From an uncultured Candidatus Saccharibacteria bacterium (GTDB lineage: Bacteria; Patescibacteriota; CAZHWT01), in contig CAZQWH010000002.1 of NCBI GenBank assembly GCA_964597145.1, forward strand, positions 49,232 through 113,231: a stretch of 64,000 nucleotides of DNA, given 5' to 3'. Positions 10,159-60,118 of this stretch are shown in pieces. Every line of letters starts with the position of its first letter. Within the stretch, counting starts at the first letter, position 1. Made by a program: the position numbers and the translations under genes. The notes beneath the pieces are model-generated. The model saw nothing but the letters and a program-made list of their open reading frames with translations. It was not told the DNA's origin and searched no databases.

Positions 10159-10637
10159 TGGCACAATTCTAGCCTTATATCATCCAACCACTCCAGCAGG
10201 TGTTCGAACCAAATGGCATCCGGCTCACCATAAATGGCTCAGATCATTTGATCTAGGCTATTTTTGTTGCGTCGCTAGCGAATCTCCCAGTTCATAGTAC
10301 TGTTCGCTTGGCAGGAGAGTACTATTTGCACAACGATACTAATTGTATGAATTACCAACTTGGCGGAGCCAACTCCCTCCCGGCTCACCAAAACATCTAA
10401 ACAGTGCGCCTCGGATCCATCCATCTATCTGAGGTAAAAAAGCTTTGTTACGTAACATGTTACGCAATAATAGGGTCTGGTGATATCTGTGAGGGGAGCA
10501 GGTGTCATATTTAACTCAACGTACATCCATAGGATCATGTAAATTAATTTTATTTGATATATAGCCTATAATATTATATAATCGTCACTATACATAACCG
10601 AGGTTCGCAAGCAAGTATCTACAAAGGAGACTGCAGA

Positions 10638-12291: not shown

Positions 12292-12623
12292 CTATTACCC
12301 AGCTTCCATACTTTCATTAAAGTAAGGAATTTGGTTGTACAGAGGGGATACCCACTCCCGATATGGTAAAGTTCTAGTCATAACGCTAGTAGTTTTATCT
12401 GAGTTAAAATGACTTTGTTACGTAACACGTTACGTAACAATAGGCATAGTGGTATCTACAAGAGGGCACCTGTTAAGAGGTAAACGCCTGACAGGTGGCA
12501 GAGCTGATTACTCCATAGCCAACCACTCACCCTCAAAGTTGTTGTCGCACTACTTGCGCATAATATTTCAACTCCTCTGTATCATCTGATATAATTCCGC
12601 CACGTATCAAAGGAGTAGACAGT

Positions 12624-14198: not shown

Positions 14199-14555
14199 CT
14201 GATACCCAAGTCACCAAACTTGCCGTATATAAGGGGTTTAACCATTTCAGAAGGTGTTCAAATAAAATTGCATCTAGGGTAACTATAAATACGCATGTAG
14301 CTTACTTACCTCAGACAAGTAAGCTACGTCTTAAATCAAGCAACCTAGGTTCAAAGCTATTTAACCTTTGAGGTTAAAGTCGTAAAGGTCTATATTATTA
14401 GAGGCTTAATACGAGGTACGAAAATTTACTCAAACTCTACCCAACCGTCATTGCCAGGTCGCCACGCTCCCCACCATGACGACAAATTCAGACTATGAGA
14501 AAGGAAAAGGGAGCATCAATTGATGCTCCCGCGACGCCAGTGGCGCCCAATAAAT

Positions 14556-18628: not shown

Positions 18629-18800
18629 TCCCATTACACCAAATATACTTATTGAAAATAACGATCATAGATGGGCTGAATATTGATCAAGTAAGCCAGG
18701 TTCAAGCACGTTTAACCCCGATCAAATCAGGGCTAGCCTCCGAGGTTGCATCTTCAGTCTAGTTTGCCCATGGTGACTGCGGATAGGTATAATTAATTGG

Positions 18801-27310: not shown

Positions 27311-27702
27311 GGCATATTGCGATATCTTTAGTAAAGGCCTGCATTGCATCTTGCGTCATGCTAAGCGTTAGCAGCCTGTCAGCCTCTGGCTGCAAGAATC
27401 TTTTAAAGCCTCCATTGTTAGTAGCAATTAACGATCCAGCCACCCATTCAACCTCCGAGGTTAAACGTGCTTGAACCTAGGTTGCTTGATGTAATATTTA
27501 TGTACCTTGTCATTCCCGGCTTGACCGGGAATCCGAGCGCCGAGTGACTCCACACTTCTTAAATTGCCGCTGACACAGAGATAACCTTAAGTTTTAACTT
27601 TTGCGCTGTAGTTTCGACCCTTAACCTTTGCCCTTTGAATTTTGACGTCCCTTCACGTTTGCTTGGTTACAGGTACAGAGTTAACGGTATACAATAGACA
27701 AC

Positions 27703-29843: not shown

Positions 29844-29882
29844 GAGGTCAGAGGTCAGAGGTCAGAGGTCAGAGGTCAGAGA
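29844..29882. repeat. Heptanucleotide tandem array (AGGTCAG, 5 units)
   Basis: 'gaggtcagaggtcagaggtcagaggtcagaggtcagag' read directly; begins 3 nt upstream of the 29841 start codon. Confidence 0.9.
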
Positions 29883-30001: not shown

Positions 30002-30070
30002 CACCCTTCATCCAATTATCTGAGTTAATTTGGCAAACGTATATACGTCCGTATATACGTTTTTTAAGCT
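30002..30070 (+). repeat. Dispersed ~70-nt element: TTATCTGAGTTAATT box plus perfect hairpin AACGTATATACG-N3-CGTATATACGTT and T-run (terminator-like)
   Basis: Near-identical copy at 51970..52040. Confidence 0.75.
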
Positions 30071-30243: not shown

Positions 30244-30345
<102 letters not shown>

Positions 30346-30703
30346 GAAGGTTAGTATACGTCATTACGAAGCCATTCGGCTCTAAAGACTCAAGCCTCAT
30401 CGTCCATTCGACGGTCTCAAGCTTATGGTTGAAGGATCAGGCTCGAATGAGGAGTGGTAACGGACTGTGGCGACCTGCCTGTTTGGACGGCGAAGGCATG
30501 GGGAGTGGGCCAAGTTTCGGATTTCGAACTTTATCAATAAACCTACCCCTTCACCTCTTGTGCCAACGAATCATCGTAGGCAGACTCAGCATGATAGGAT
30601 GCCGGCAGAAAGCTGCAGTTTGACAACAAGTGTATTGATTGTCTGCCCAATATGTGTTACTATAGGTTATGTAGATTATTCGATTTCACCAAAGGTGGGG
30701 AAA

Positions 30704-38258: not shown

Positions 38259-38349
38259 GCCATACCCCTTTCTTTGTTTGCCTGCCTCCAGTTAGGCGCA
38301 TTATAGCACGGTTAATTGAGTCTTAAGTCCGAAAAGAAGGTGTGTACTT

Positions 38350-38417
38350 CATTGCCAGGGAGTGGTAGCAACCGTGGCAACCTGCCTGTTTCGCATCTAA
38401 AATTCGCTCGCTATGAC
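38350..38417. repeat. MITE-like element with GTCATTGC(G/C)AGG-type inverted termini (family copy)
   Basis: 'TTCATTGCCAGGGAGTGGTAGCAACCGTGGCAACCTGCC...CGCTATGACGAGGGAGG'; the internal 'GGAGTGGTA.C..C..TGGCAACCTGCC' is shared with the copy at 52815. Confidence 0.6.
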
Positions 38418-38581
38418 GAGGGAGGGGTGGGGTTGGAGATCGGGTTTTAGGTTTCTAGCTCTAAGCGTCAGTACGTCCTCGTCATTCCCGCGCAGGCGGG
38501 AATCTGAGACTGTGGTGGTGGATGTAGGGCTTAGATTTAATTGGAGAAGATCGCCACGGCGTAGCCTCGCGATGACGGGCT

Positions 38582-38623
38582 GTAGACCGTAGACCGTAGA
38601 CCGTAGACCGTAGACCGTAGAGG
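38582..38623. repeat. Heptanucleotide tandem array (GTAGACC, 6 units) inside a composite repeat element
   Basis: Read directly; flanked by the conserved 'GATCGCCACGGCGTAGCCTCGCGATGACGGG' (38551..38580) and 'GAGGAGATTCTATCTCTTCGCT' (38621..38642). Confidence 0.9.
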
Positions 38624-38816
38624 AGATTCTATCTCTTCGCTGCGCTCCGCTCCAGAATGACGGGAGGGTGTCGAAGATCGGAGGTCGGAGATCTAATATC
38701 GTATTTCATTCATCCAGCAGTCCAATCTCCTAACTCCTGCCTCCTGCAGTACATACAAAAAGACCCCGGAGATTATCCGGGGTCTTTTTGTTAGGCGTTA
38801 GCTAATTAATGGTAAT

Positions 38817-39566: not shown

Positions 39567-39817
39567 ATTAGTGTCCCTCCTTGGGGTTACTAGTTATTGA
39601 TATATTTATACCATATACTATAGGATATGTCAAGATGTACTATTATATGCCTATCTTCTGGGATTTGCAAATAAGAAATTATCTGAGTTAATTCTTTAGT
39701 CTTAAATCGGAGTAAATTATAGGGTTTATAAACTAATTTTAATAGAACCCAGATGGTATAATGGGCGCCGATAGAATTTGGAGATAGAAGCTAGGAGCTA
39801 GGAGCTCGAATGTAAAT

Positions 39818-39892
39818 GTCATTGCAAGGGAGTGTATTGACCGCGGCAATCTATATAAACCAATCAAGATTGCTTCGCTAGGGCGCAATGAC
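39818..39892. repeat. MITE-like element, GTCATTGCAAGGG ... GCGCAATGAC terminal inverted repeats
   Basis: ~75 nt; internal 'GACCGCGGCAATCT'; preceded by GCTAGGA x2. Confidence 0.7.
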
Positions 39893-39924
39893 GACAAGCA
39901 ACTTACAATTAACGGTATTTAAGT

Positions 39925-40971
39925 ATGAAAATTTACGTTGGCATGAGCGGCGGGGTAGATAGCTCCCTGACCGCGGCATTATTAAAAGAACAAGGGCATG
40001 ACGTCACTGGGGTTTACCTCAAGAACTGGGCCAAAGAATGGGATATCTTTGACTGTCCCTGGGCAGATGACTTGCACGATGCCTCACGGGTAGCCGAGCA
40101 ACTTGGGATAGAGTTGAAAGTGTTTGATGTCCAGCAGCAGTATCGCCATTATGTGGTGGACTATATGTTGGCCGAGTACCAGGCTGGGCGCACGCCTAAC
40201 CCCGATATCATGTGCAACCAGGAGATGAAGTTTGGGGTGTTTATGCGATTGGCTGAGGCTGATGGGGCAGAGGCTATCGCGACTGGACACTACGCACGAA
40301 TTAAAGAAGGGAACTTGATGGCTGGCGTTGATAAAAACAAGGATCAGAGTTATTTCCTTTACCGTATCAGGCCAGAATCATTAACCAAAGCCTATATGCC
40401 CATTGGCCAATACACCAAACCTCATGTTCGCGAAATGGCTAAAGAGCGCGGATTAGTGACCGCCAGCAAAAAAGATTCGCAAGGCATATGCTTCATCGGC
40501 AAGGTTAAGTTAAAGGACTTTCTGAAAATGTATGTCAAAAGTGAACCGGGTGAGGTGATTGATCAGCACGGTCAAGTGATAGGGGAACATGATGGCGCAA
40601 TTTATTACACCATCGGCCAGCGGTCAGGCTTGGGTATCGGTGGTGGCCAGCCCTACTTTATTACTGGTAAAGACATGAATAAAAATGAGATCTATGTCAC
40701 CACTGATCCGCAAGATGATGAACTGTGGAAAGACACTGTATCAATCAATCAGCTCCATTGGCTGAACGAGGCTCCAAAGTCAAATAAGATCTACCACATC
40801 CGAGCTCGCTATCGCGCACCATTAGTTGAAGCTAGAATTACCCAGCTTAACAACACGTCCATGTCTTTCAAGTTACAACAGCCAGTCCGCGCCATCGCCC
40901 CTGGTCAGTCATTAGTAATGTATGACAAAGATAGGGTGGTGGGTGGAGGCATCATCACCGCAGAGCGGTGA
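39925..40971 (+). CDS. mnmA: tRNA-specific 2-thiouridylase
   Basis: PP-loop 'YVGMSGGVDSSLTAALL', conserved Cys positions, length 348 aa. Confidence 0.9.
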   Translation: MKIYVGMSGGVDSSLTAALLKEQGHDVTGVYLKNWAKEWDIFDCPWADDLHDASRVAEQLGIELKVFDVQQQYRHYVVDYMLAEYQAGRTPNPDIMCNQEMKFGVFMRLAEADGAEAIATGHYARIKEGNLMAGVDKNKDQSYFLYRIRPESLTKAYMPIGQYTKPHVREMAKERGLVTASKKDSQGICFIGKVKLKDFLKMYVKSEPGEVIDQHGQVIGEHDGAIYYTIGQRSGLGIGGGQPYFITGKDMNKNEIYVTTDPQDDELWKDTVSINQLHWLNEAPKSNKIYHIRARYRAPLVEARITQLNNTSMSFKLQQPVRAIAPGQSLVMYDKDRVVGGGIITAER

Positions 40972-41039
40972 TGAGTAGTAAGTATTGAGTCCGGAGTAGG
41001 GAATAAATGAAGTCTTTCTCAGAATAATGCGGTTCCACC

Positions 41040-41122
41040 GTCATTGCGAGGGAGTAAAACGACCACGGCAATCTTCTCAGCACAGCCAAGATTGCTTCGT
41101 CATTTACATTCCTCGCAATGAC
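41040..41122. repeat. MITE-like element, GTCATTGCGAGG ... CCTCGCAATGAC perfect 12-nt terminal inverted repeats
   Basis: 83 nt, read directly; internal 'ACGACCACGGCAATCT' box shared with other copies. Confidence 0.8.
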
Positions 41123-41263
41123 GAAGTACTCAAAACCCATTCGCACACCACCCATCACCCTTCGTCGATATATCTGAGATATAAACGGCTTGTTACGTAA
41201 CATGTTACGTAACAAAATCAATTGGTAATGATAACTTACGATTAACTAAATAACCCATAGTAT

Positions 41264-41292
41264 TTGATATTAAAAGATTTTTTTGGTATAAT
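41264..41292 (+). promoter_or_regulatory. Near-consensus sigma70 promoter TTGATA-17-TATAAT
   Basis: -35 at 41264..41269, 17-nt spacer, -10 at 41287..41292; about 95 nt upstream of the 41389 ORF. Confidence 0.6.
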
Positions 41293-41388
41293 TTACGCAC
41301 AATTCCCAGGTGGATGTCTGGGTGCTTCGAATCATTCGGGGAACAGTGAGTCCTGCCACTGAAGCATGACGTGGAGAAAGGCTAGTCG

Positions 41389-41790
41389 ATGACTCAACCC
41401 AAGGTGAAAAGCGAGTGGGCTCTCAGGTATGTCCAGGCACAAAATAATAAAGACGCTGGCAGACCGAAGGGTTCACTTCTTACTCAAACAGACTTCCGGC
41501 CTGTTGTAGGGAACGAGTATGAGATCGAAGATGCCCCCAGCATCGCTGATCTCGACCACAGTAAGAATTTTGGTTTCGTTTTCTCTAGCGACCAGCATCA
41601 GGTAGGTTTCCAGATAGCTGGAAAACTCGGCGGTTTTGCCGGATGGATCGTAGAGATGGGGAGAGCAGGATACAGCAGTGACTCGTGGACAGTCGAGGGA
41701 GTAACAAACTCGTTTAGCAACGACCTCCACTACTTCGTAGTCACCATGAGCATCAGGTATCGCACCGGTCGCGTGAAGTTCTACCGCTAA
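41389..41790 (+). CDS. Hypothetical protein (133 aa)
   Basis: Monocistronic unit with the promoter above and a strong terminator below. Confidence 0.45.
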   Translation: MTQPKVKSEWALRYVQAQNNKDAGRPKGSLLTQTDFRPVVGNEYEIEDAPSIADLDHSKNFGFVFSSDQHQVGFQIAGKLGGFAGWIVEMGRAGYSSDSWTVEGVTNSFSNDLHYFVVTMSIRYRTGRVKFYR

Positions 41791-41810
41791 ATCAGCGGCT
41801 TGACCGCAAA

Positions 41811-41845
41811 AACCCCGGAGGTCCGCCTCTGGGGTTTTCTTTTGT
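41811..41845 (+). terminator. Rho-independent terminator
   Basis: CCCCGGAGG stem ... CCTCTGGGG followed by TTTTCTTTTG. Confidence 0.7.
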
Positions 41846-42344
41846 CTTTGTCATTCTGAGTGTCAACGCCTACCAGCCTCTAGCTAGAAGAATCCTCCAA
41901 TCTAGATGGCCATAAGGATCCTTCGCTTTCAGTTCAGGATGACAAATACCTGTAATTCCTAGAAAGTAGTTAATCAAGATCTTTATTAACTGTTCATCGC
42001 TCAGATTCCGGCTCGGAGCCTCAATGGAAACATTCCAAACTCAGGCGCATTTATGACGCGCTTCACTCCCTATAAACCACAGTCTATCTAGATACTTTCG
42101 TCTCAATAAACCCGAGAATTGCACGATACTTAACCATAATTTCATCTATTCCACCCATCAACCTATCCAAGTTAATATATCTCAGACAGGAACCTCCCAT
42201 AAATTTGACCTCTCACATATAAAAGCCTAAAAAACTACACACAATCAGTACCAAGTAACAGTATGTAACATGCAGCCTCCATCACGCCTTAACCTAAAGC
42301 CTGAGCCAGAAATTCCCAACTCTTCGTCACACCAACAAGCAACC

Positions 42345-42412
42345 TAGGTTCAAAGCTGTTTAACCCCCGAGGTTAAATGTGTTTGAACCTAGGTTGCTTG
42401 TTAAACTTTAAG
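42345..42412. repeat. Palindromic dispersed element ACAAGCAACCTAGGTTCAAAGC-TTTAACCCCCGAGGTTAAA-TTTGAACCTAGGTTGCTTGTT (complete copy)
   Basis: Half or partial copies at 14335..14380, 27450..27491, 54516..54572 and 18696..18720. Confidence 0.8.
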
Positions 42413-42755
42413 CGCAATAACACCTCGCGGGTGTTGCACCCATACACTATCCACAAAATCGCGTCAGAGTCATGTGATTTAGATTAATTTTGTGATGATG
42501 AATAGCTATAATTAGAGATTTATGTGCCACGAAGGAGTGCTCAAAATGAGGCCTTGGGGTGTTTCATCTCTCCAAACTTTACTGGCATTCTAAGTGTCAA
42601 CCGCCTGCCAGCCTCTGGCTGGAAGAATCTTTCAACCTACATAGCCACAAAGATCCCTCATTGAGGGCAATTGAGGTTTAACCTCAATAAGGGGGTTGAG
42701 GTTAAACCTCAATTATACGCATTCTGAATGCTATACGCGTGACGCTGACCGCTTT

Positions 42756-43808
42756 CTAAAATTCTCCCACCAACCCAATTTCCATTTCCAATTGATAGCC
42801 GGTTTCGGCTTTGACTTTCTCCTGAGCCAGTATGGCTAAGGCCATAACATCAGCCGCAGTAGCCTGACCCGTATTGACTAAAAAGTTAGCATGTTTTTCG
42901 GATATTTTTGCTCCGCCAACCTGCTTGCCTTTTAGTCCCACCTGATCGATTAATCGACCAGCGCCCACCCCTTCAATTTTTTTAAAGACCGAACCACAAG
43001 AGGGGAAATCCTCTAGTTGGGGTTGACGTTCGCGACGCCATTTAAGATTTTCTTGGGCTTGATGGACTATTTCCGCCTTTGGTTTAGTTATCAGATTAAA
43101 GGTGGCCTCTAACACAATAACCTCCTGGTGGTGGAGGATAGAATCGTCATAGCCAAACTGAAAAAAGTCGGTACCCACTACTCGAGTTGAATTATCTGGC
43201 ATCAGAACTTTGGCACTATCTAAAACCTCCTCAATAAACACTGTCCGACTACGATCTGGCGACAAAAAATGCAGATTCTGCCATAAGGCGCCACCAACGC
43301 TACTTGGAATGCCGGCAAAATGCTCGAGGCCGGAGAGTTGGCGCTCGGCTGTATATTTAATTAAATCGGCAATGGTTGCCCCGGACTCGGCAGTGAGCAA
43401 GCAGGTCGGAGATCGCATGTCGGAGGTCGATTCACTGTCATCCAGGAGTGCGTCAGCACGATAGGATCTATCCTGGACATCATGACCATCCTGAGAGATT
43501 CTATCGCCTCCGGCTCCAGAAAGACGAGATAAAGGGTTAATCTCAACATTATCTGCCTGATTATAAATTACTAACCCACGAAATCCTTTGTCGCCGATGA
43601 GGATATTGGCGCCGGTGCCGAGGAGGAAGTAGGGGATGGACTGCTGTCGCGCTTGAGTGATGGCAGTTACGAGCTGGTCTTGGGAGTGAACCTCCACAAA
43701 ATAGTCAGCTGGGCCGCCGATCTGGTAGGTGGTGTAAGGGGCAAGGGATACATCTCGTTGTATATCTAACCCAGGTATATTGAGATCCATATGAGTGTAG
43801 TGTACCAT
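42756..43808 (-). CDS. murB: UDP-N-acetylenolpyruvoylglucosamine reductase
   Basis: FAD-binding 'YTTYQIGGPADYFVEV...LLGTGANIL', 'GLEHFAGIPSSVGGALWQN', C-terminal MurB domain. Carries an extra ~40-aa acidic insert encoded by repeat-like DNA at ~43400..43520. Confidence 0.9.
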   Translation of the reverse strand: MVHYTHMDLNIPGLDIQRDVSLAPYTTYQIGGPADYFVEVHSQDQLVTAITQARQQSIPYFLLGTGANILIGDKGFRGLVIYNQADNVEINPLSRLSGAGGDRISQDGHDVQDRSYRADALLDDSESTSDMRSPTCLLTAESGATIADLIKYTAERQLSGLEHFAGIPSSVGGALWQNLHFLSPDRSRTVFIEEVLDSAKVLMPDNSTRVVGTDFFQFGYDDSILHHQEVIVLEATFNLITKPKAEIVHQAQENLKWRRERQPQLEDFPSCGSVFKKIEGVGAGRLIDQVGLKGKQVGGAKISEKHANFLVNTGQATAADVMALAILAQEKVKAETGYQLEMEIGLVGEF

Positions 43809-43878
43809 TTTGCAATTATATAGCCTATAGTATATAATGTATTTTGATTATTGGATCTTCAAACCAGGAGATTGCTCA

Positions 43879-44457
43879 ATGTATGGTCCGATTCTCAAAG
43901 GCAAGACCAAGCATGGTCGTCAATTCGTACTTCGCCCTCCCACCGAGGATGACGCCCCACTGCTGATTCGATGGATGGCAGATCCAGAGGTAACGCGTAC
44001 CTTGGGTCGGATCTTTCCTATGTCGCTTGACTCGGAGAGAGAGTGGCTGTCCGAGGAAGCAAACAACTCTGAATCGGTCATTTGGATCATCGAGTGCAAA
44101 CATAGATGGAATTTTGTTCCAATTGGCATAGCTGGTATCCACGAAATCGATTCTATTCATCGGAACGCAGTCACTAGCATGTTTATCGGCGAAAAATCGC
44201 TTTGGGATCAAGGCATCGCAACAGCAGTGATGGAGTTGCGTATCAACTTTACCTTTACATTTCTAGGCCTGCACAAGCTCAAGTCGTCTTTTTTGGAAGG
44301 AAATGAAGGCAGCCGGAGGGCTCAAAAGTCTGCTGGCTACCAAGAAGTTGGCCGAAACAGAGAAGAGTTTTGGCGTGACGGTCAATGGGTGGATGAAATT
44401 TTAACCGAAGTGCTGGCCGCAGACTGGTTTGCTGCGAATAGACCAGTAGTTGAATGA
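43879..44457 (+). CDS. GNAT-family N-acetyltransferase (RimJ/RimL-like)
   Basis: 'FVLRPPTEDDAPLLIRWMADPEVTRTLG' and a GNAT core; ATG at 43879 (the longer ORF begins at 43837). Confidence 0.7.
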   Translation: MYGPILKGKTKHGRQFVLRPPTEDDAPLLIRWMADPEVTRTLGRIFPMSLDSEREWLSEEANNSESVIWIIECKHRWNFVPIGIAGIHEIDSIHRNAVTSMFIGEKSLWDQGIATAVMELRINFTFTFLGLHKLKSSFLEGNEGSRRAQKSAGYQEVGRNREEFWRDGQWVDEILTEVLAADWFAANRPVVE

Positions 44458-44580
44458 AGATTGATACAATTCCCTGGAGGCGAAAGCCGACGGGGAATTT
44501 TTATTGCTAATATTTCATGCTTAGAATTTGTTTCATATACTGTAATTCTGATTTCTCATTTCAAAACATCAGATTCCCGA

Positions 44581-46215
44581 TCAGGTCGGGAATGACAGGG
44601 GAGCGGTGTTTGTTAATTGAGGCGAATATGGTTTGATATTGGATCGATTGCTAGGACTACTTATATATCGTTTTAAGATTTTATATTGATCCAGATCGAA
44701 CTGAGGGATTATCGATTGGTGCTCAATTAACTGGTCATGTTGGATAATATGGCCAACCAAACACCAGTTATCAATAATATACCCATCACTTTGGCCTTGA
44801 TGGTCGCTTTCGGTAATAATAATCGGTGTCGCATATGGCCATTGTTTAATTCTGGTTGTGGCAAAAGCTTGGTTGAATCGCATTAAATACTCCAAGCTGG
44901 ATTCTTTTCCCACACACGCTCCATAGCAAACTTTGAGTTGATGAGGGAAACAGGCGCCAGAGGTTTTTTGGAGCCCTAATAATTTGTGACAAAGGTGATG
45001 CTCTTTGGCTAGAGCAACTAATGATTCTTTAGCCTGTCGCTCGGAGCGATAGACGGCCATAACTGCGTCCAGAGGGACGCAGGAGGTCGATGGTGGGAGG
45101 TTGGAAGGCGACTTGGATTTTAATTTGTCGTCATCCCGGAAGAAGTCTTGCGACTGATAGGATCTAGATTCTATCGCCTTTGGCTCTCTTCGATCCTGAG
45201 CCTCAGAGCCGAAGGCCAGAATGACATTTTCTATATTTATTTTTTCTGATTTCTGATTTGTTTCGATTTTAGGATTTAGAATTTCTGATTTGCGCTGCAA
45301 GGAGATTGTTGGATAGCCAGCCTCATCTTTGCCTTTAATCGCCACCATCATCTCGGTTTGGCATCGCAGCAGCCGGTTATGGATCGGCATTAGCTCCTTA
45401 ATTAAGCGTGATTCAGTAAGCAAGGCACCTAGTTCGCCGGTAGTAGATATGGTTTCAATATCCGTAATTTCCCGGGCAATCCGTTGCTCTTTGGGGGAGC
45501 GGTGGTCATCGCTAAAGTGAGATAAAACTCGATCACGGATACTCACACTTTTGCCGACATACAAGGGTGCATTAGTGGCAGAGCGAAAAATATAAACCCC
45601 CGGCGACTCAGGTAAGTCATTCACAATTCTCTGGGGCAGGTGAACCGGCAAAGATGGCTGACGTAGCTGTAATCGAACCTGCTGGTTAATAATTGCTTCG
45701 TCATGTTGTTCAACCATGCATTGCAAGGCTTTCCAAGTCGCTTCAGCATCAGCAAAAGCCCGGTGGCGTTCGAGTATAGGGATAGCAAAGCGTTCAATGA
45801 GGGCGTCTAGTTTATGGCTGCGATAGTGCGGGTAAAGTGCTCGGGACAACTTGACCGTGCAGAGCAGGCGAGGTTTAAACTGGTACCCAGCTCGCCCTAA
45901 TTCCTCTTTGATAAAGGCATAATCAAACCGGGCGTTGTGCGCCACAAAAATACAGCCTTCAAGTAAGTCGTACACATCCTGAGCCACCTCAGTAAAAGTA
46001 GGTGCGCCCGTTATATCATCATTAGAAATCCCAGTTAATTGGGTAATAAAGGCTGGGAGTGAGGTACCAGGATTAATTAATTGGCGCATAGTTTGCACCA
46101 CCTGCCCCTGCTCAATCCGTAAAATACCCACATCAATCACGCCGCCGTTTTTATACGACATCCCAGTAGTTTCGACATCAACAATAGCCAGCGGAGAATG
46201 GAACAGATTGGGCAT
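44581..46215 (-). CDS. DnaQ-like 3'-5' exonuclease (DEDDh) fused to GIY-YIG nuclease domain (Cho/UvrC-homologue-like)
   Basis: Exo motifs 'VDVETTG', 'HNARFD', 'HRAFADA'; GIY-YIG 'GVYIFRS...LYVGKSVSIRDRVLSHF'. A ~75-aa low-complexity insert is encoded by repeat DNA at ~45060..45300. Confidence 0.85.
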   Translation of the reverse strand: MPNLFHSPLAIVDVETTGMSYKNGGVIDVGILRIEQGQVVQTMRQLINPGTSLPAFITQLTGISNDDITGAPTFTEVAQDVYDLLEGCIFVAHNARFDYAFIKEELGRAGYQFKPRLLCTVKLSRALYPHYRSHKLDALIERFAIPILERHRAFADAEATWKALQCMVEQHDEAIINQQVRLQLRQPSLPVHLPQRIVNDLPESPGVYIFRSATNAPLYVGKSVSIRDRVLSHFSDDHRSPKEQRIAREITDIETISTTGELGALLTESRLIKELMPIHNRLLRCQTEMMVAIKGKDEAGYPTISLQRKSEILNPKIETNQKSEKINIENVILAFGSEAQDRREPKAIESRSYQSQDFFRDDDKLKSKSPSNLPPSTSCVPLDAVMAVYRSERQAKESLVALAKEHHLCHKLLGLQKTSGACFPHQLKVCYGACVGKESSLEYLMRFNQAFATTRIKQWPYATPIIITESDHQGQSDGYIIDNWCLVGHIIQHDQLIEHQSIIPQFDLDQYKILKRYISSPSNRSNIKPYSPQLTNTAPLSFPT

Positions 46216-46475
46216 TACCCGAAATTATAACGAAGTTGGTGGGAAAATAGTAAGAGGCAGGCGAGTCAGCGGAGCCGACAAAAGTTGGGAGATAGGAGGT
46301 AGGATATAGTAGGGTTATCGTATGTTTTTATCTTGGCCCCTTTTTACGGTGGCTCACTTCAAAAGGCCTGATAACCTCTTATATAAATGTAATACAGAAG
46401 TAAAAAGGGCAGGGCTAAGTGGGGAATACCCACAAAGCACCTGCCCTTGCGTTGCACCTTTCTGTTTAGCTGTTA

Positions 46476-51610: not shown

Positions 51611-51612
51611 AG

Positions 51613-51662
51613 GACTTTGGACTTTGGACTTTGGACTTTGGACTTTGGACTTTGGACTTTGG
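51613..51662. repeat. Heptanucleotide tandem array (GACTTTG, 7 units) starting 3 nt after the stop codon of the 1106-aa gene
   Basis: Read directly; followed by the conserved 'GGAGGAGATTCTATCTCTTCGCT' and 'GATCACCACGGCGTAGC...GATGACGGGAGGG' flanks. Confidence 0.9.
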
Positions 51663-51969
51663 AGGAGATTCTATCTCTTCGCTATAGATACTGCTGGTAA
51701 TACAGGCAGGTCTGGTTGGATAAAGTAGATACCGATTAAATTGGGGTAGATCACCACGGCGTAGCTTCCGCCAGGGGCGGACAGGCGTGATGACGGGAGG
51801 GATTCGAAGATCGTATATCGGGTTTTAGGTTTGGTGTTTGTGATTTCGAGCTTGTGATTTGTTTCTCATTTCGAATTTCTCATTTCGGCTTTTGCCTATA
51901 ATTCCACCTCCATTTCTTGTCTTGCGCATTTCGTATTCTGCCTTCTAGTTTCCCATCCCACCCGGCACA

Positions 51970-52040
51970 TCACCCTTCCATCATTTATCTGAGTTATTTT
52001 GGCCAACGTATATACGGGCGTATATACGTTTTTTGAGCCT
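51970..52040 (+). repeat. Second copy of the TTATCTGAGTTATTT plus AACGTATATACG-N3-CGTATATACGTT-T6 terminator-like element
   Basis: Near-identical to 30002..30070. Confidence 0.75.
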
Positions 52041-52769: not shown

Positions 52770-52805
52770 GGATGCGGGATGCGGGATAAGGGATAAGGGA
52801 TAAGG
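52770..52805. repeat. Heptanucleotide tandem array (GGATGCG x2, GGATAAG x3)
   Basis: Read directly; followed by 'GGTTAGTATACGTCATTGCGAAGG', as at 30346. Confidence 0.85.
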
Positions 52806-52814
52806 TTAGTATAC

Positions 52815-52928
52815 GTCATTGCGAAGGAGTGGTAACGACTATGGCAACCTGCCCGCCATGCTTACGCAGCCGTTGCAGGCGGGTCTTGGTGGGATCTAGC
52901 AGATCGCCACGGCGTAGCCTCGCGATGA
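52815..52928. repeat. MITE-like element, GTCATTGCGAAGG ... CCTCGCGATGAC termini
   Basis: 114 nt; internal 'GGAGTGGTAACGACTATGGCAACCTGCC' and 'GATCGCCACGGCGTAGCCTCGCGATGACGG' boxes shared with 38350 and 38551. Confidence 0.75.
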
Positions 52929-53338
52929 CGGGGAAGAGGATTTGTATATTGTATATCGTATATCGTATTTCGGGGATTGGGTTGGTGTGTTGTGATTCCT
53001 GTCCGCAAGGCTGGTTATGGCTTGCCTGGTGGACGGGTTTTGTTTCTGATTTGTTTCGTATTTCGTATTTCGTATTTTGTATTTCTGAATAAGTTTTACC
53101 TTTTATCTTTTCCGTTCAGATCACAGCTGTCCTTTAGGTAAGATTTTTGTCTTATCGAACAACTTCCAACTAAGGCTCAATCTAGCTCATTCCCCTAGCT
53201 ATCTGAGTTAATTCTGTGACTAAGAAATATTTTACCCAATTTCCGGTCTAAATTTTCAAAAATTAACCAACAGCGGAGTACATATTTTACCCTGGTAATT
53301 TGACAGGCAACCAAGCGATTGGATACCATTAACAAGAT

Positions 53339-54229: not shown

Positions 54230-54702
54230 AAAATATGGATTGAATCCGTAGTGATTCAGTCTATGTTTTTTGTGCTTGTGGGTTTGGAGTTTCACTATGC
54301 AAAGCAGGTTCACATTCTAAAAGAGTACTATGCCAACACCGATTGTAATAGTGAGAACTAGAAATCCCAACATAGTCGGGGTCCCTCTCCCCAGTACCGC
54401 ATCTATCAGTCTCAAGCTAGGAGAGTAATAACAACGCAGCAGTCTTATCTAAAGATGTACATTTGAATGTACATCTTTAGATATTTATCTGAGATGAAAT
54501 AAACAGCCATCAAATCAGACAACCTAGGTTCAAGCACGTTTAACCCCGGGGGTTAAACGGGTCGTCATTCGCACTCATTAATAATTCACAGGATAAAAAT
54601 AGCCATCACTCGGCATCATTTGTATTGGCTTATTTGACTTATACCACCCTATCCGTTATATAACCCACATCGGCGTGAGAGTGCATAAAAAGGAGAGACT
54701 TC

Positions 54703-59750: not shown

Positions 59751-60118
59751 GTACTTATTTTAGCAGATTTTACTCTGTTTCTGGTTGCGCGAAGCGCGTC
59801 GGCTTTGCCGACCGAGCCACGCCGCCTGTTTCGGCTACTGCCGAAACGCGCACCACCAGAAAACCCTTTTCAACTAAAAAAGAAATTCGGCGGGGGAAAT
59901 CTCAAAAATATGCAAAGGGTTTTTCTGGCGGGGCGCAGCACGGCTTTGCCGTGCTAGGCGGCGGGGCTTGTGCTCGTCAGCCATTTTGCTCAAAATAGGT
60001 TCGGACTTGCGTGTAGTAGTCCACCAATTAAAAAAACGCCAAAGTTGTTTTTTAGTTTAATAGTTTATTGTTTGTAGTTTATAGATGACAAAGCAAATAC
60101 AATATCCCAATTTGCTTT

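Follow-up and report, generated by a model that had tools for sequence, protein, structure and literature searches.

The window analysed here, a stretch of 64,000 nucleotides from an uncultured Candidatus Saccharibacteria bacterium (contig CAZQWH010000002.1, positions 49,232 to 113,231 of the forward strand), carries on its minus strand a murB gene whose product contains a segment encoded by repeat-like DNA and, nearby on the same strand, a gene for a DnaQ-type exonuclease fused to a GIY-YIG/Cho-like nuclease, with an insert of its own (Table 1). From the DNA letters alone, the original prediction had proposed that a MITE (miniature inverted-repeat transposable element) inserted into murB without breaking its reading frame, as Rickettsia palindromic elements (RPEs) do. 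We followed up this proposal by homologue alignment, structure prediction and searches for related repeats in the window and in metagenomes.

MurB contains a lineage-specific loop predicted to be disordered

The murB product gave Pfam matches to MurB_C (E 3e-30) and to FAD_binding_4, the latter in two stretches, on either side of an inserted peptide of 43–44 aa (PLSRLSGAGGDRISQDGHDVQDRSYRADALLDDSESTSDMRSPT, aa 92–135 of MurB). This peptide, which contains 9 acidic and 5 basic residues and has no Pfam match inside it, had been described as an acidic segment of about 40 residues missing from compact MurB proteins. The description holds, since the insert is missing from all 119 nearest homologues and is without counterpart in any of the MurB relatives that we aligned (17, then 117 homologues), including relatives 75–80% identical outside the insert. 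The orthologue alignment which the original prediction had called for therefore shows the insert to be lineage-specific. In a search of 5.8 billion proteins from NCBI and Logan assemblies the identical MurB was the first match, and the nearest non-identical relatives measured 299–308 aa, as opposed to 350 aa. Identical murB genes, insert included, were present on contigs of seven separate sequencing runs and on a 243-kb NCBI contig, and given its presence in seven separate runs the insert is not an artefact of assembly. The closest relatives of both the MurB and the Cho-like proteins of the window come from Saccharibacteria and Parcubacteria metagenome-assembled genomes (MAGs), and a scan of genome contigs likewise found its nearest matches, at 52–57% identity, in Parcubacteria/Saccharibacteria MAGs.

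All 68 invariant columns of the 118-sequence MurB alignment are kept in this protein, and the AlphaFold2 model derived from the 118 sequences has a mean pLDDT of 88.4. The closest structure to the model in the PDB is S. aureus MurB (1HSK; TM 0.89, root-mean-square deviation 1.6 Å), so that, judged by the model, the protein outside the insert is a normal type-II MurB. Residues 97–129 are modelled with pLDDT <50 and no secondary structure, between flanking strands 88–92 and 135–141; the structure mapping, also called for at the outset, thus places the insert in a disordered loop between two β-strands. The turn which holds it is variable in sequence among relatives, one of which (P0007) has a 6-aa indel there, and the insert therefore lies where a disordered excursion would be least harmful to MurB. 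We considered whether the extra 6 aa (18 nt) of P0007 could be a remnant of the element and rejected this, as the segment is an unrelated local duplication flanked by GACCCTC. Predicted tryptic peptides across the insert junctions include ISQDGHDVQDR and ADALLDDSESTSDMR.

The insert had been placed at 43400–43520 and is indeed there, although its span had to be corrected to 43404–43535, with the element described below at 43437–43525. Its GC content is 53%, compared with 47% in the remainder of murB, which agrees with its description as GC-rich; the antisense open reading frames (ORFs) which had also been pointed out exist but are uninformative.

The insert holds a complete palindromic repeat element

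Read on the plus strand, the insert consists of a heptamer array, an 89-nt element and about 10 further nt. The order of blocks within the element is GTCATCCAGGAG-TGCGTCAGCAC-GATAGGATCT-(26 nt)-AGATTCTATC-GCCTCCGG-CTCCAGAAAGAC, which comprises, in order, all four blocks of a family that we recovered from metagenomes (see below), namely the 5' terminal inverted repeat (TIR), GATAGGATCT, AGATTCTATC and the 3' TIR. R1, the covariance model that we derived from 81 copies found in metagenomes, matched the murB copy over its full model length (43435–43527, 47.8 bits, E 4e-13). A properly spaced pair of TIRs with at most one mismatch occurs in the window in murB only, and with at most two mismatches in murB and the Cho-like gene only, while of 300 shuffles essentially none gave a match, and none at all at the one-mismatch limit; this test is independent of the pattern used in the metagenome scan, which included only the inner 20 nt. 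The adjoining heptamer array encodes the C-terminal part of the inserted peptide and resembles an intergenic stretch, GAAGATC GGAGGTC GGAGATC, at 38670–38693.

A second copy lies in the Cho-like gene

The Cho-like protein has a lineage-specific linker insert of about 68 aa (approximately 45073–45276), a segment absent from its closest homologues, which are 476–487 aa long as opposed to 544 aa. Within this linker, 1.7 kb from the murB copy, lies the second complete copy of the element, flanked by GGAGGTC-like heptamers on one side and by (TTTCTGA)n on the other. In both inserts GGAGGTCGA, GTCATCC, GATAGGATCT and AGATTCTATCGCCT..GGCTC follow one another in this order, and the best match to the murB insert in the window is a 14-mer at 45166–45179, inside the Cho-like gene. 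When the murB insert was compared with the entire window by a chained alignment that tolerates gaps, the Cho-like insert was again picked, with a score of 71.5 compared with 55.4±3.7 for dinucleotide shuffles, none of which (0/150) reached it. Under strict gap costs the result was marginal, being equalled by 6 of 150 shuffles. The shared motif AGATTCTATCGCC is read in different frames, as GDRIS in MurB and as KAIES in the Cho-like protein, and the likeness is therefore at the level of DNA and not of protein.

The original prediction had instead compared the insert with the intergenic repeat at 38621 and 51663, but its best relative in the window is the copy in the Cho-like gene. The motifs that it quoted are in place (GATAGGATCTATCCTG at 43460–43475, GAGATTCTATCGCCTCC at 43495–43511, and GAGGAGATTCTATCTCTTCGCT at 38620 and 51662), but the likeness amounts to an exact 11-mer with a BLAST E of 1.7, which is chance level, so that the link to repeats is solid only with the family consensus obtained from metagenomes. 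With that consensus, 38623–38661 could later be recognised as the truncated 3' half of an element, whereas the copy at 51665 retains only AGATTCTATCTCTTCGCT. BLAST and motif searches of the insert against the window returned exact matches of 10–14 nt only, the best of them being of marginal significance (equalled by 5 of 200 codon and 6 of 150 dinucleotide shuffles), and a stringent self-BLAST of the window gave no repeat match in the murB insert. Mapping of repeats with k=11 was uninformative, as 31% of the window was covered by chance.

Two relatives of the Cho-like protein (P0126, L015 1150–1310; P0129, L016 10100–10190) have independent in-frame inserts in the same linker. These consist of heptamer arrays with a GTCATTGCGAG...GCAATC hairpin, or of inverted heptamer arrays on either side of a short core. 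Different repeat families have thus colonised this linker time and again and, as the inserts are independent, in-frame acquisition of repeats is recurrent in this lineage.

Table 1 Coding sequences, inserts and element copies in the window (aa, amino acids; nt, nucleotides; TRF, Tandem Repeats Finder).
Feature	Position	Strand	Basis
murB coding sequence, 350 aa, open through the insert	42756–43808	−	ORF list, Pfam, AlphaFold2, 1HSK match
Insert of 132 nt (44 aa, PLSRLSG...MRSPT) in the FAD-binding domain, in frame and lineage-specific	43404–43535	−	Homologue alignments, AlphaFold2
Degenerate heptamer array GCAGGTC GGAGATC GCATGTC GGAGGTC, adjoining the element	43401–43429	+	TRF, period 14, 2.1 copies
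Complete palindromic repeat element, 89 nt	43437–43525	+ (antisense to murB; orientation of the family consensus)	Covariance model, TIR-pair test
5' TIR GTCATCCAGGAG, 1 mismatch to consensus GTCATCCTGGAG	43437–43448	+	Metagenome consensus
Central hairpin: GATAGGATCT, 26-nt loop, AGATTCTATC; 10-bp stem with one G·T	43460–43505	+	
3' TIR CTCCAGAAAGAC, 1 mismatch to consensus CTCCAGAATGAC	43514–43525	+	
DnaQ-type exonuclease fused to GIY-YIG/Cho-like nuclease, 544 aa	44581–46215	−	Pfam
Second complete element copy, in frame in the Cho-like gene	45128–45227	+	R1, 50.2 bits, E 7e-14, full model length
Truncated intergenic copy, 3' half AGATTCTATC-N16-CTCCAGAATGAC, behind a (GTAGACC)6 array	38623–38661	+	Exact 3' TIR
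Intergenic element of a related GTCAT...ATGAC subfamily (GTCATTCTGAG...CAGGATGAC)	41848–41945	−	R1, 28.5 bits, E 1e-6
Weaker R1 relatives, intergenic	41038–41124, 39816–39894, 52813–52931		

The element belongs to a structured family present in metagenomes

We scanned metagenomes with the inner palindrome only, a 20-nt query of the form GATAGGATCT-N(0-30)-AGATTCTATC, and obtained at least 128 matches on at least 120 contigs, several of which held two or three. The matches share an architecture that extends beyond the query, (T)GTCATCCTGGAG – variable arm – GATAGGATCT – 0–30-nt loop – AGATTCTATC – variable arm – CTCCAGAATGAC(A), in which the two ends, GTCATCCTGGAG and CTCCAGAATGAC, are complements of each other at all but one of 12 positions. 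The two TIRs, with at most two mismatches, were found together in 120 of 130 matches (the 128 metagenome matches listed and the two window copies). The elements range from 62 to 136 nt in length, and at least 110 copies are unique. The names of some contigs suggest that the metagenomes come from groundwater-type environments.

For 81 copies RNAalifold predicts a four-way junction: the outer stem is GUCAU.CUG / CAG.AUGAC, the central stem of 10 bp, itself fixed by the search pattern, contains an invariant G·U, and there are two variable arms with compensatory changes, in which four covarying pairs are kept with both bases changed in 13, 49, 21 and 28 of the 81 copies. A T at position −1 and an A at position +1 flank the element in about 72% of copies. 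Tandem or nested copies, in the form of two copies in one GT39-like gene, of arrays about 10 nt apart or of duplicated TIR ends, were seen on five contigs (L067 1185–1417, L072, L070, L047 and L020), which suggests insertion of the element beside or inside its own copies.

Neither Rfam nor Pfam contains a model for the element; in the window, Rfam recognised only two tRNAs, with no credible match within 43350–45300. In the literature searched, neither the element nor any RPE-like elements of Patescibacteria were described, but its coverage was incomplete and an earlier description is possible.

In-frame copies recur in other essential genes

Although most copies are intergenic, about 20% of the both-TIR metagenome copies listed (23/118, two of which are the same gene on two contigs) sit in ORFs that remain open for at least 60 codons on each side, and the element is found in both orientations relative to the host gene. 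Five of these in-gene copies were tested by Pfam, and all five lie in genuine genes, with a domain match that spans the insertion: LepA, leucyl-tRNA synthetase (LeuRS), ATP-dependent DNA ligase, UvrD and a copper P-type ATPase. Arginyl-tRNA synthetase (ArgRS), another UvrD and GT39-like membrane proteins are further recognisable hosts, and one gene for a GT39-like membrane protein contains two element copies. LeuRS homologues about 70% identical lack the segment encoded by the element. The contig that carries the LeuRS gene belongs to a Patescibacterium (relatives from Parcubacteria, Falkowbacteria and the Patescibacteria group, 65–71% identity), and it is on this one checked contig, together with the window, that the host range is based.

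In every conserved block, two of the three frames on either strand are free of stops, and most copies have one or two open frames. Element lengths are evenly distributed modulo 3 overall (35/37/38), whereas those of in-gene copies are skewed, with 13 of 24 in one class, as would be expected if only frame-preserving insertions survive.

Other repeats were seen in the same host genes. At the LeuRS editing-domain loop (P0246 compared with P0241; L076 5122–5212), a 70%-identical homologue has VIASEAKQSNEQDN (VIASEAKQS...) in place of the element-encoded segment, a peptide which a GTCATTGCGAGCGAAGC-type repeat typically gives when translated; two different families are therefore found in frame at one loop. 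The LepA (L049) and ArgRS (L106) proteins contain extra repeat-like peptides, NRHPELPNRHPELVSGSNSQILNQVQND and LAQASVSASSSNEIPKRVRDD. Single genes may accumulate several different in-frame repeat insertions.

Origin of the MurB insert

Taken together, we consider it very probable that the MurB insert is an in-frame copy of a non-autonomous palindromic repeat element, that is, of selfish DNA. The element of about 89 nt, plus about 40 nt of heptamer-type repeat DNA, would have entered murB in the FAD-binding domain, at a turn that joins two β-strands. The added length being a multiple of three, and the frame in use being free of stops, the reading frame is kept, and the element would therefore be translated as a 44-residue acidic, disordered surface loop. 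As far as sequence and model can tell, MurB should remain functional with this loop, and we infer that the loop is translated and tolerated as a near-neutral addition, and that the element is, or was, mobile. Mobilisation could involve recognition of a folded single strand, for instance by a HUH/Y1-type enzyme, as in the insertion sequence (IS) family IS200/IS605 or in repetitive extragenic palindromes (REPs) and their associated transposases (RAYTs). We favour such a single-strand, structure-guided route as the most likely one because of the conserved termini, a four-way junction in two of whose arms compensatory changes occur, and the lack of target-site duplications, but this is speculation, offered with low confidence.

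Several observations weigh against this interpretation. The 64-kb window contains only two full copies, together with one truncated copy and related subfamilies. There is no empty-site allele of murB at high identity and, as the nearest relative is 80% identical, insertion is deduced by parsimony. The boundaries of the insert are fuzzy because the native MurB loop is itself variable. In folding stability the complete insert does not exceed shuffled sequences (z −0.9 as DNA, +0.5 as RNA), and the outer stem of the murB copy has two non-canonical pairs in the R1 alignment, while its central stem and both arms are able to form in that alignment. Given the outer-stem mismatches the murB copy is probably old and immobile, and the unremarkable stability of the fold is also consistent with an old, decaying copy. 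Covariation in the family may partly result from copying of the palindrome rather than from selection. Lastly, no target-site duplication was found across 110 unique copies, of which 62 have no flanking direct repeat, 33 have one of 1 nt and only three have one of 3 nt or more, which is the distribution expected by chance; nor is there a convincing target-site duplication or terminal direct repeat around the murB insert.

We weighed these points together with other possible origins of the insert, each of which conflicts with one direct result or more. Local slippage, or low-complexity expansion in a variable loop whose likeness to repeats is a coincidence, could account for the tolerance of the loop to indels, for the 18-nt local duplication of P0007 at the same site and for a 14-nt tandem duplication within the murB insert, and it would fit the chance level of the 11-mer that the insert has in common with 38620 and 51662 and the empty self-BLAST. 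It does not explain why all four family blocks are present in the right order and spacing, in a family recovered independently from metagenomes, and the chance occurrence of both TIRs is negligible (0 of 300 shuffles). The covariance-model match (E 4e-13) contradicts it as well, and the TIRs, being independent of the search pattern, oppose the idea that the pattern created the family alignment; we therefore regard slippage as very unlikely. Somewhat less improbable, though still unlikely, is that local recombination or gene conversion produced the murB copy from the Cho-like one, or the latter from the former, the element itself being immobile repeat DNA, as REPs or short tandemly repeated repetitive (STRR) sequences may be. 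The two full copies lie close to each other in the same orientation, both have GGAGGTC-type heptamers, and no target-site duplication was found. However, they differ throughout their variable arms and loop (a 26-nt loop compared with none, and a third arm of 39 nt compared with 9 nt) and so are not recent duplicates, and unrelated contigs and unrelated genes carry at least 110 distinct copies, which requires some process of dispersal.

If the element were an intervening sequence, excised from the transcript or from the protein, or a functional RNA within murB, MurB would lack the loop. The conserved four-way junction with its compensatory changes and invariant central G·U, as well as the frequent location inside essential genes, could be read in this way, but in-gene copies are always open in the frame of the host, and the skew of their lengths towards one class modulo 3 (13/24, as against one third overall) is a constraint imposed by translation and not by splicing. 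Intein and intron hallmarks are missing, Rfam has no match, and the copies lie in either orientation with respect to the host gene and mostly between genes; we give this explanation very little weight. Even harder to credit is that murB is a decaying pseudogene or an assembly chimera. In its favour, the region is unusually rich in repeats, and the mnmA-murB spacer, 4 nt in a relative, has grown to 1.8 kb. Against it stand a full-length ORF with every invariant MurB column kept, a fold predicted with high confidence, and an identical sequence in seven independent assemblies and the 243-kb contig.

Comparison with known repeat systems

Within the scope of its account of them, a review describes RPEs as short palindromic repeats of about 100–150 bp, present in many copies per lineage, a substantial fraction of which lie in frame in unrelated housekeeping genes; the peptide segments are compatible with the protein fold, and no RPE transposase is identified in that account (Ogata et al. 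2000, summarised in PMC10969869). The murB element is likewise a short palindromic repeat with many copies, a substantial fraction of which sit in frame in housekeeping genes of no relation to one another, at sites which the fold can accommodate. It differs in its host, which is Patescibacteria-like and not Rickettsia or Rickettsiales, in a consensus that appears to be unrelated (GTCATCCTGGAG...GATAGGATCT...AGATTCTATC...CTCCAGAATGAC), in the shorter length given above, in a predicted four-way junction with two variable covarying arms, and in its association with heptamer tandem arrays in this genome. It is thus best regarded, by analogy, as an RPE analogue and not as a member of the RPEs.

Bacterial MITEs with intragenic copies that fuse ORFs include ERIC, Coxiella QMITE1 and the Anabaena MITEs (review PMC10969869). 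The murB-type element resembles these in being small (89 nt, within a limit of under about 500 bp), dispersed and bounded by TIRs, in having no capacity to encode a transposase and in fusing with ORFs in frame. Classical MITEs, however, have target-site duplications and derive from an identifiable IS, and the murB-type element shows no target-site duplication (n=110 copies). What had originally been proposed therefore stands as an in-frame insertion of a repeat element, on the strength of family membership, TIRs, an internal palindrome, lineage specificity, a site in a disordered loop and in-frame copies in other genes, but a MITE in the strict sense is not established.

The murB-type element shares with REPs and bacterial interspersed mosaic elements (BIMEs), which are associated with RAYTs, and with elements derived from IS200/IS605, imperfect palindromes, conserved termini, the lack of target-site duplication and compensatory conservation of structure, and these likenesses underlie our proposal of single-strand recognition. 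REPs measure 20–40 nt, are extragenic by definition and have a 5' GTAG-type tetranucleotide; murB-type elements are 62–136 nt long and are also intragenic. Cyanobacterial genomes reportedly contain dispersed repeats of small size as well as STRR arrays of heptamers (Elhai et al. 2008). Here, too, intergenic DNA combines small hairpin repeats with heptanucleotide arrays in tandem, and the hairpin repeats can nest in others. In contrast to the cyanobacterial repeats, the murB-type element is longer and has TIRs, and the relatives of the MurB, Cho-like and LeuRS proteins are Patescibacteria; its association with arrays is also not a general one, as a heptamer array lies within 150 nt of the element in only 7 of the 128 metagenome copies listed. 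The murB element is accordingly filed as a small palindromic repeat that colonises coding sequence in frame, and not under any named family.

Other repeats in the window

The window contains further repeats. Intergenic heptanucleotide tandem arrays with varied units lie at 29844–29881, 30244–30345, 38582–38621, 39780–39806, 46288–46309, 51612–51663, 52770–52805, 52944–52972, 53054–53085 and 60049–60084; they are reminiscent of cyanobacterial STRR and, according to a simple detector, occur about 1.2 times per 10 kb both in the window and in the 120 element-bearing metagenome loci. The mnmA-murB spacer (40971–42756; the 4-nt spacer of the syntenic relative is at L013 2251–2256) is filled with repeats of several families and with a small ORF. 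The lineage has undergone an expansion of intergenic repeats which is unusual for a Patescibacteria-like genome.

Hairpin elements with GTCAT...ATGAC ends and other cores were found at 38340–38580 and 30350–30490, as well as at the positions of the four R1 relatives (41848–41945, 41038–41124, 39816–39894 and 52813–52931), their cores being GTCATTCTGAG...GAAGAATC, GTCATTGCGAGGGAG...GGCAATC and GTCATTCCCGCGCAGGCGGGAATC. These elements and that of murB give the impression of a single superfamily. Distinct from them is a dispersed palindrome, CAAGCAACCTAGGTTCAAGC...TTTAACC(N)GGTTAAA, with five copies, apparently all intergenic (14337–14378, 18686–18720, 27442–27498, 42333–42402 and 54514–54562). 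Perfect palindromic double sites lie upstream of genes, TTGTTACGTAACATGTTACGTAACAA at 10444–10470, 12415–12440 and 41190–41216, and AACGTATATACGnnCGTATATACGTT at 30035–30061 and 52005–52031; by their sequence they look like putative operator-type binding sites. At 42656–42713, some 45 nt downstream from the stop codon of murB, a 25-nt unit, CCTCAAT..GAGGTTAAA, is present in 2.3 tandem copies and forms AACCTCAAT/ATTGAGGTT hairpins, which may be a terminator or another repeat.

Implications

The elements described here possibly represent an undescribed, phylum-wide family of structured selfish elements in Patescibacteria (CPR, the Candidate Phyla Radiation), within the GTCAT...ATGAC superfamily, a suggestion which we put forward tentatively, as one somewhat short of probable. 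Such a family would colonise surface loops of essential proteins (MurB, LeuRS, LepA, DNA ligase and UvrD) in the manner of RPEs, with about one fifth of copies in genes, and would be moved by an uncharacterised, single-strand and structure-guided mechanism.

The family constitutes a large natural set of tolerated loop insertions, which may be of use in protein engineering and in judging loops in AlphaFold models. Repeats of this kind inflate or disrupt gene and domain calls in MAGs, as seen here in the split FAD_binding_4 match, and the covariance model can be used to mask the elements or to take a census of them, while the conserved fold offers a handle for finding the mobilising enzyme. The colonisation of essential genes by in-frame palindromic repeats, a textbook oddity of Rickettsia, is thus also found in Patescibacteria-like genomes. 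These are usually called extremely streamlined, and yet the element is present in murB, in aminoacyl-tRNA synthetase genes and in genes for replication and repair, and the phenomenon may therefore be more general than previously thought.

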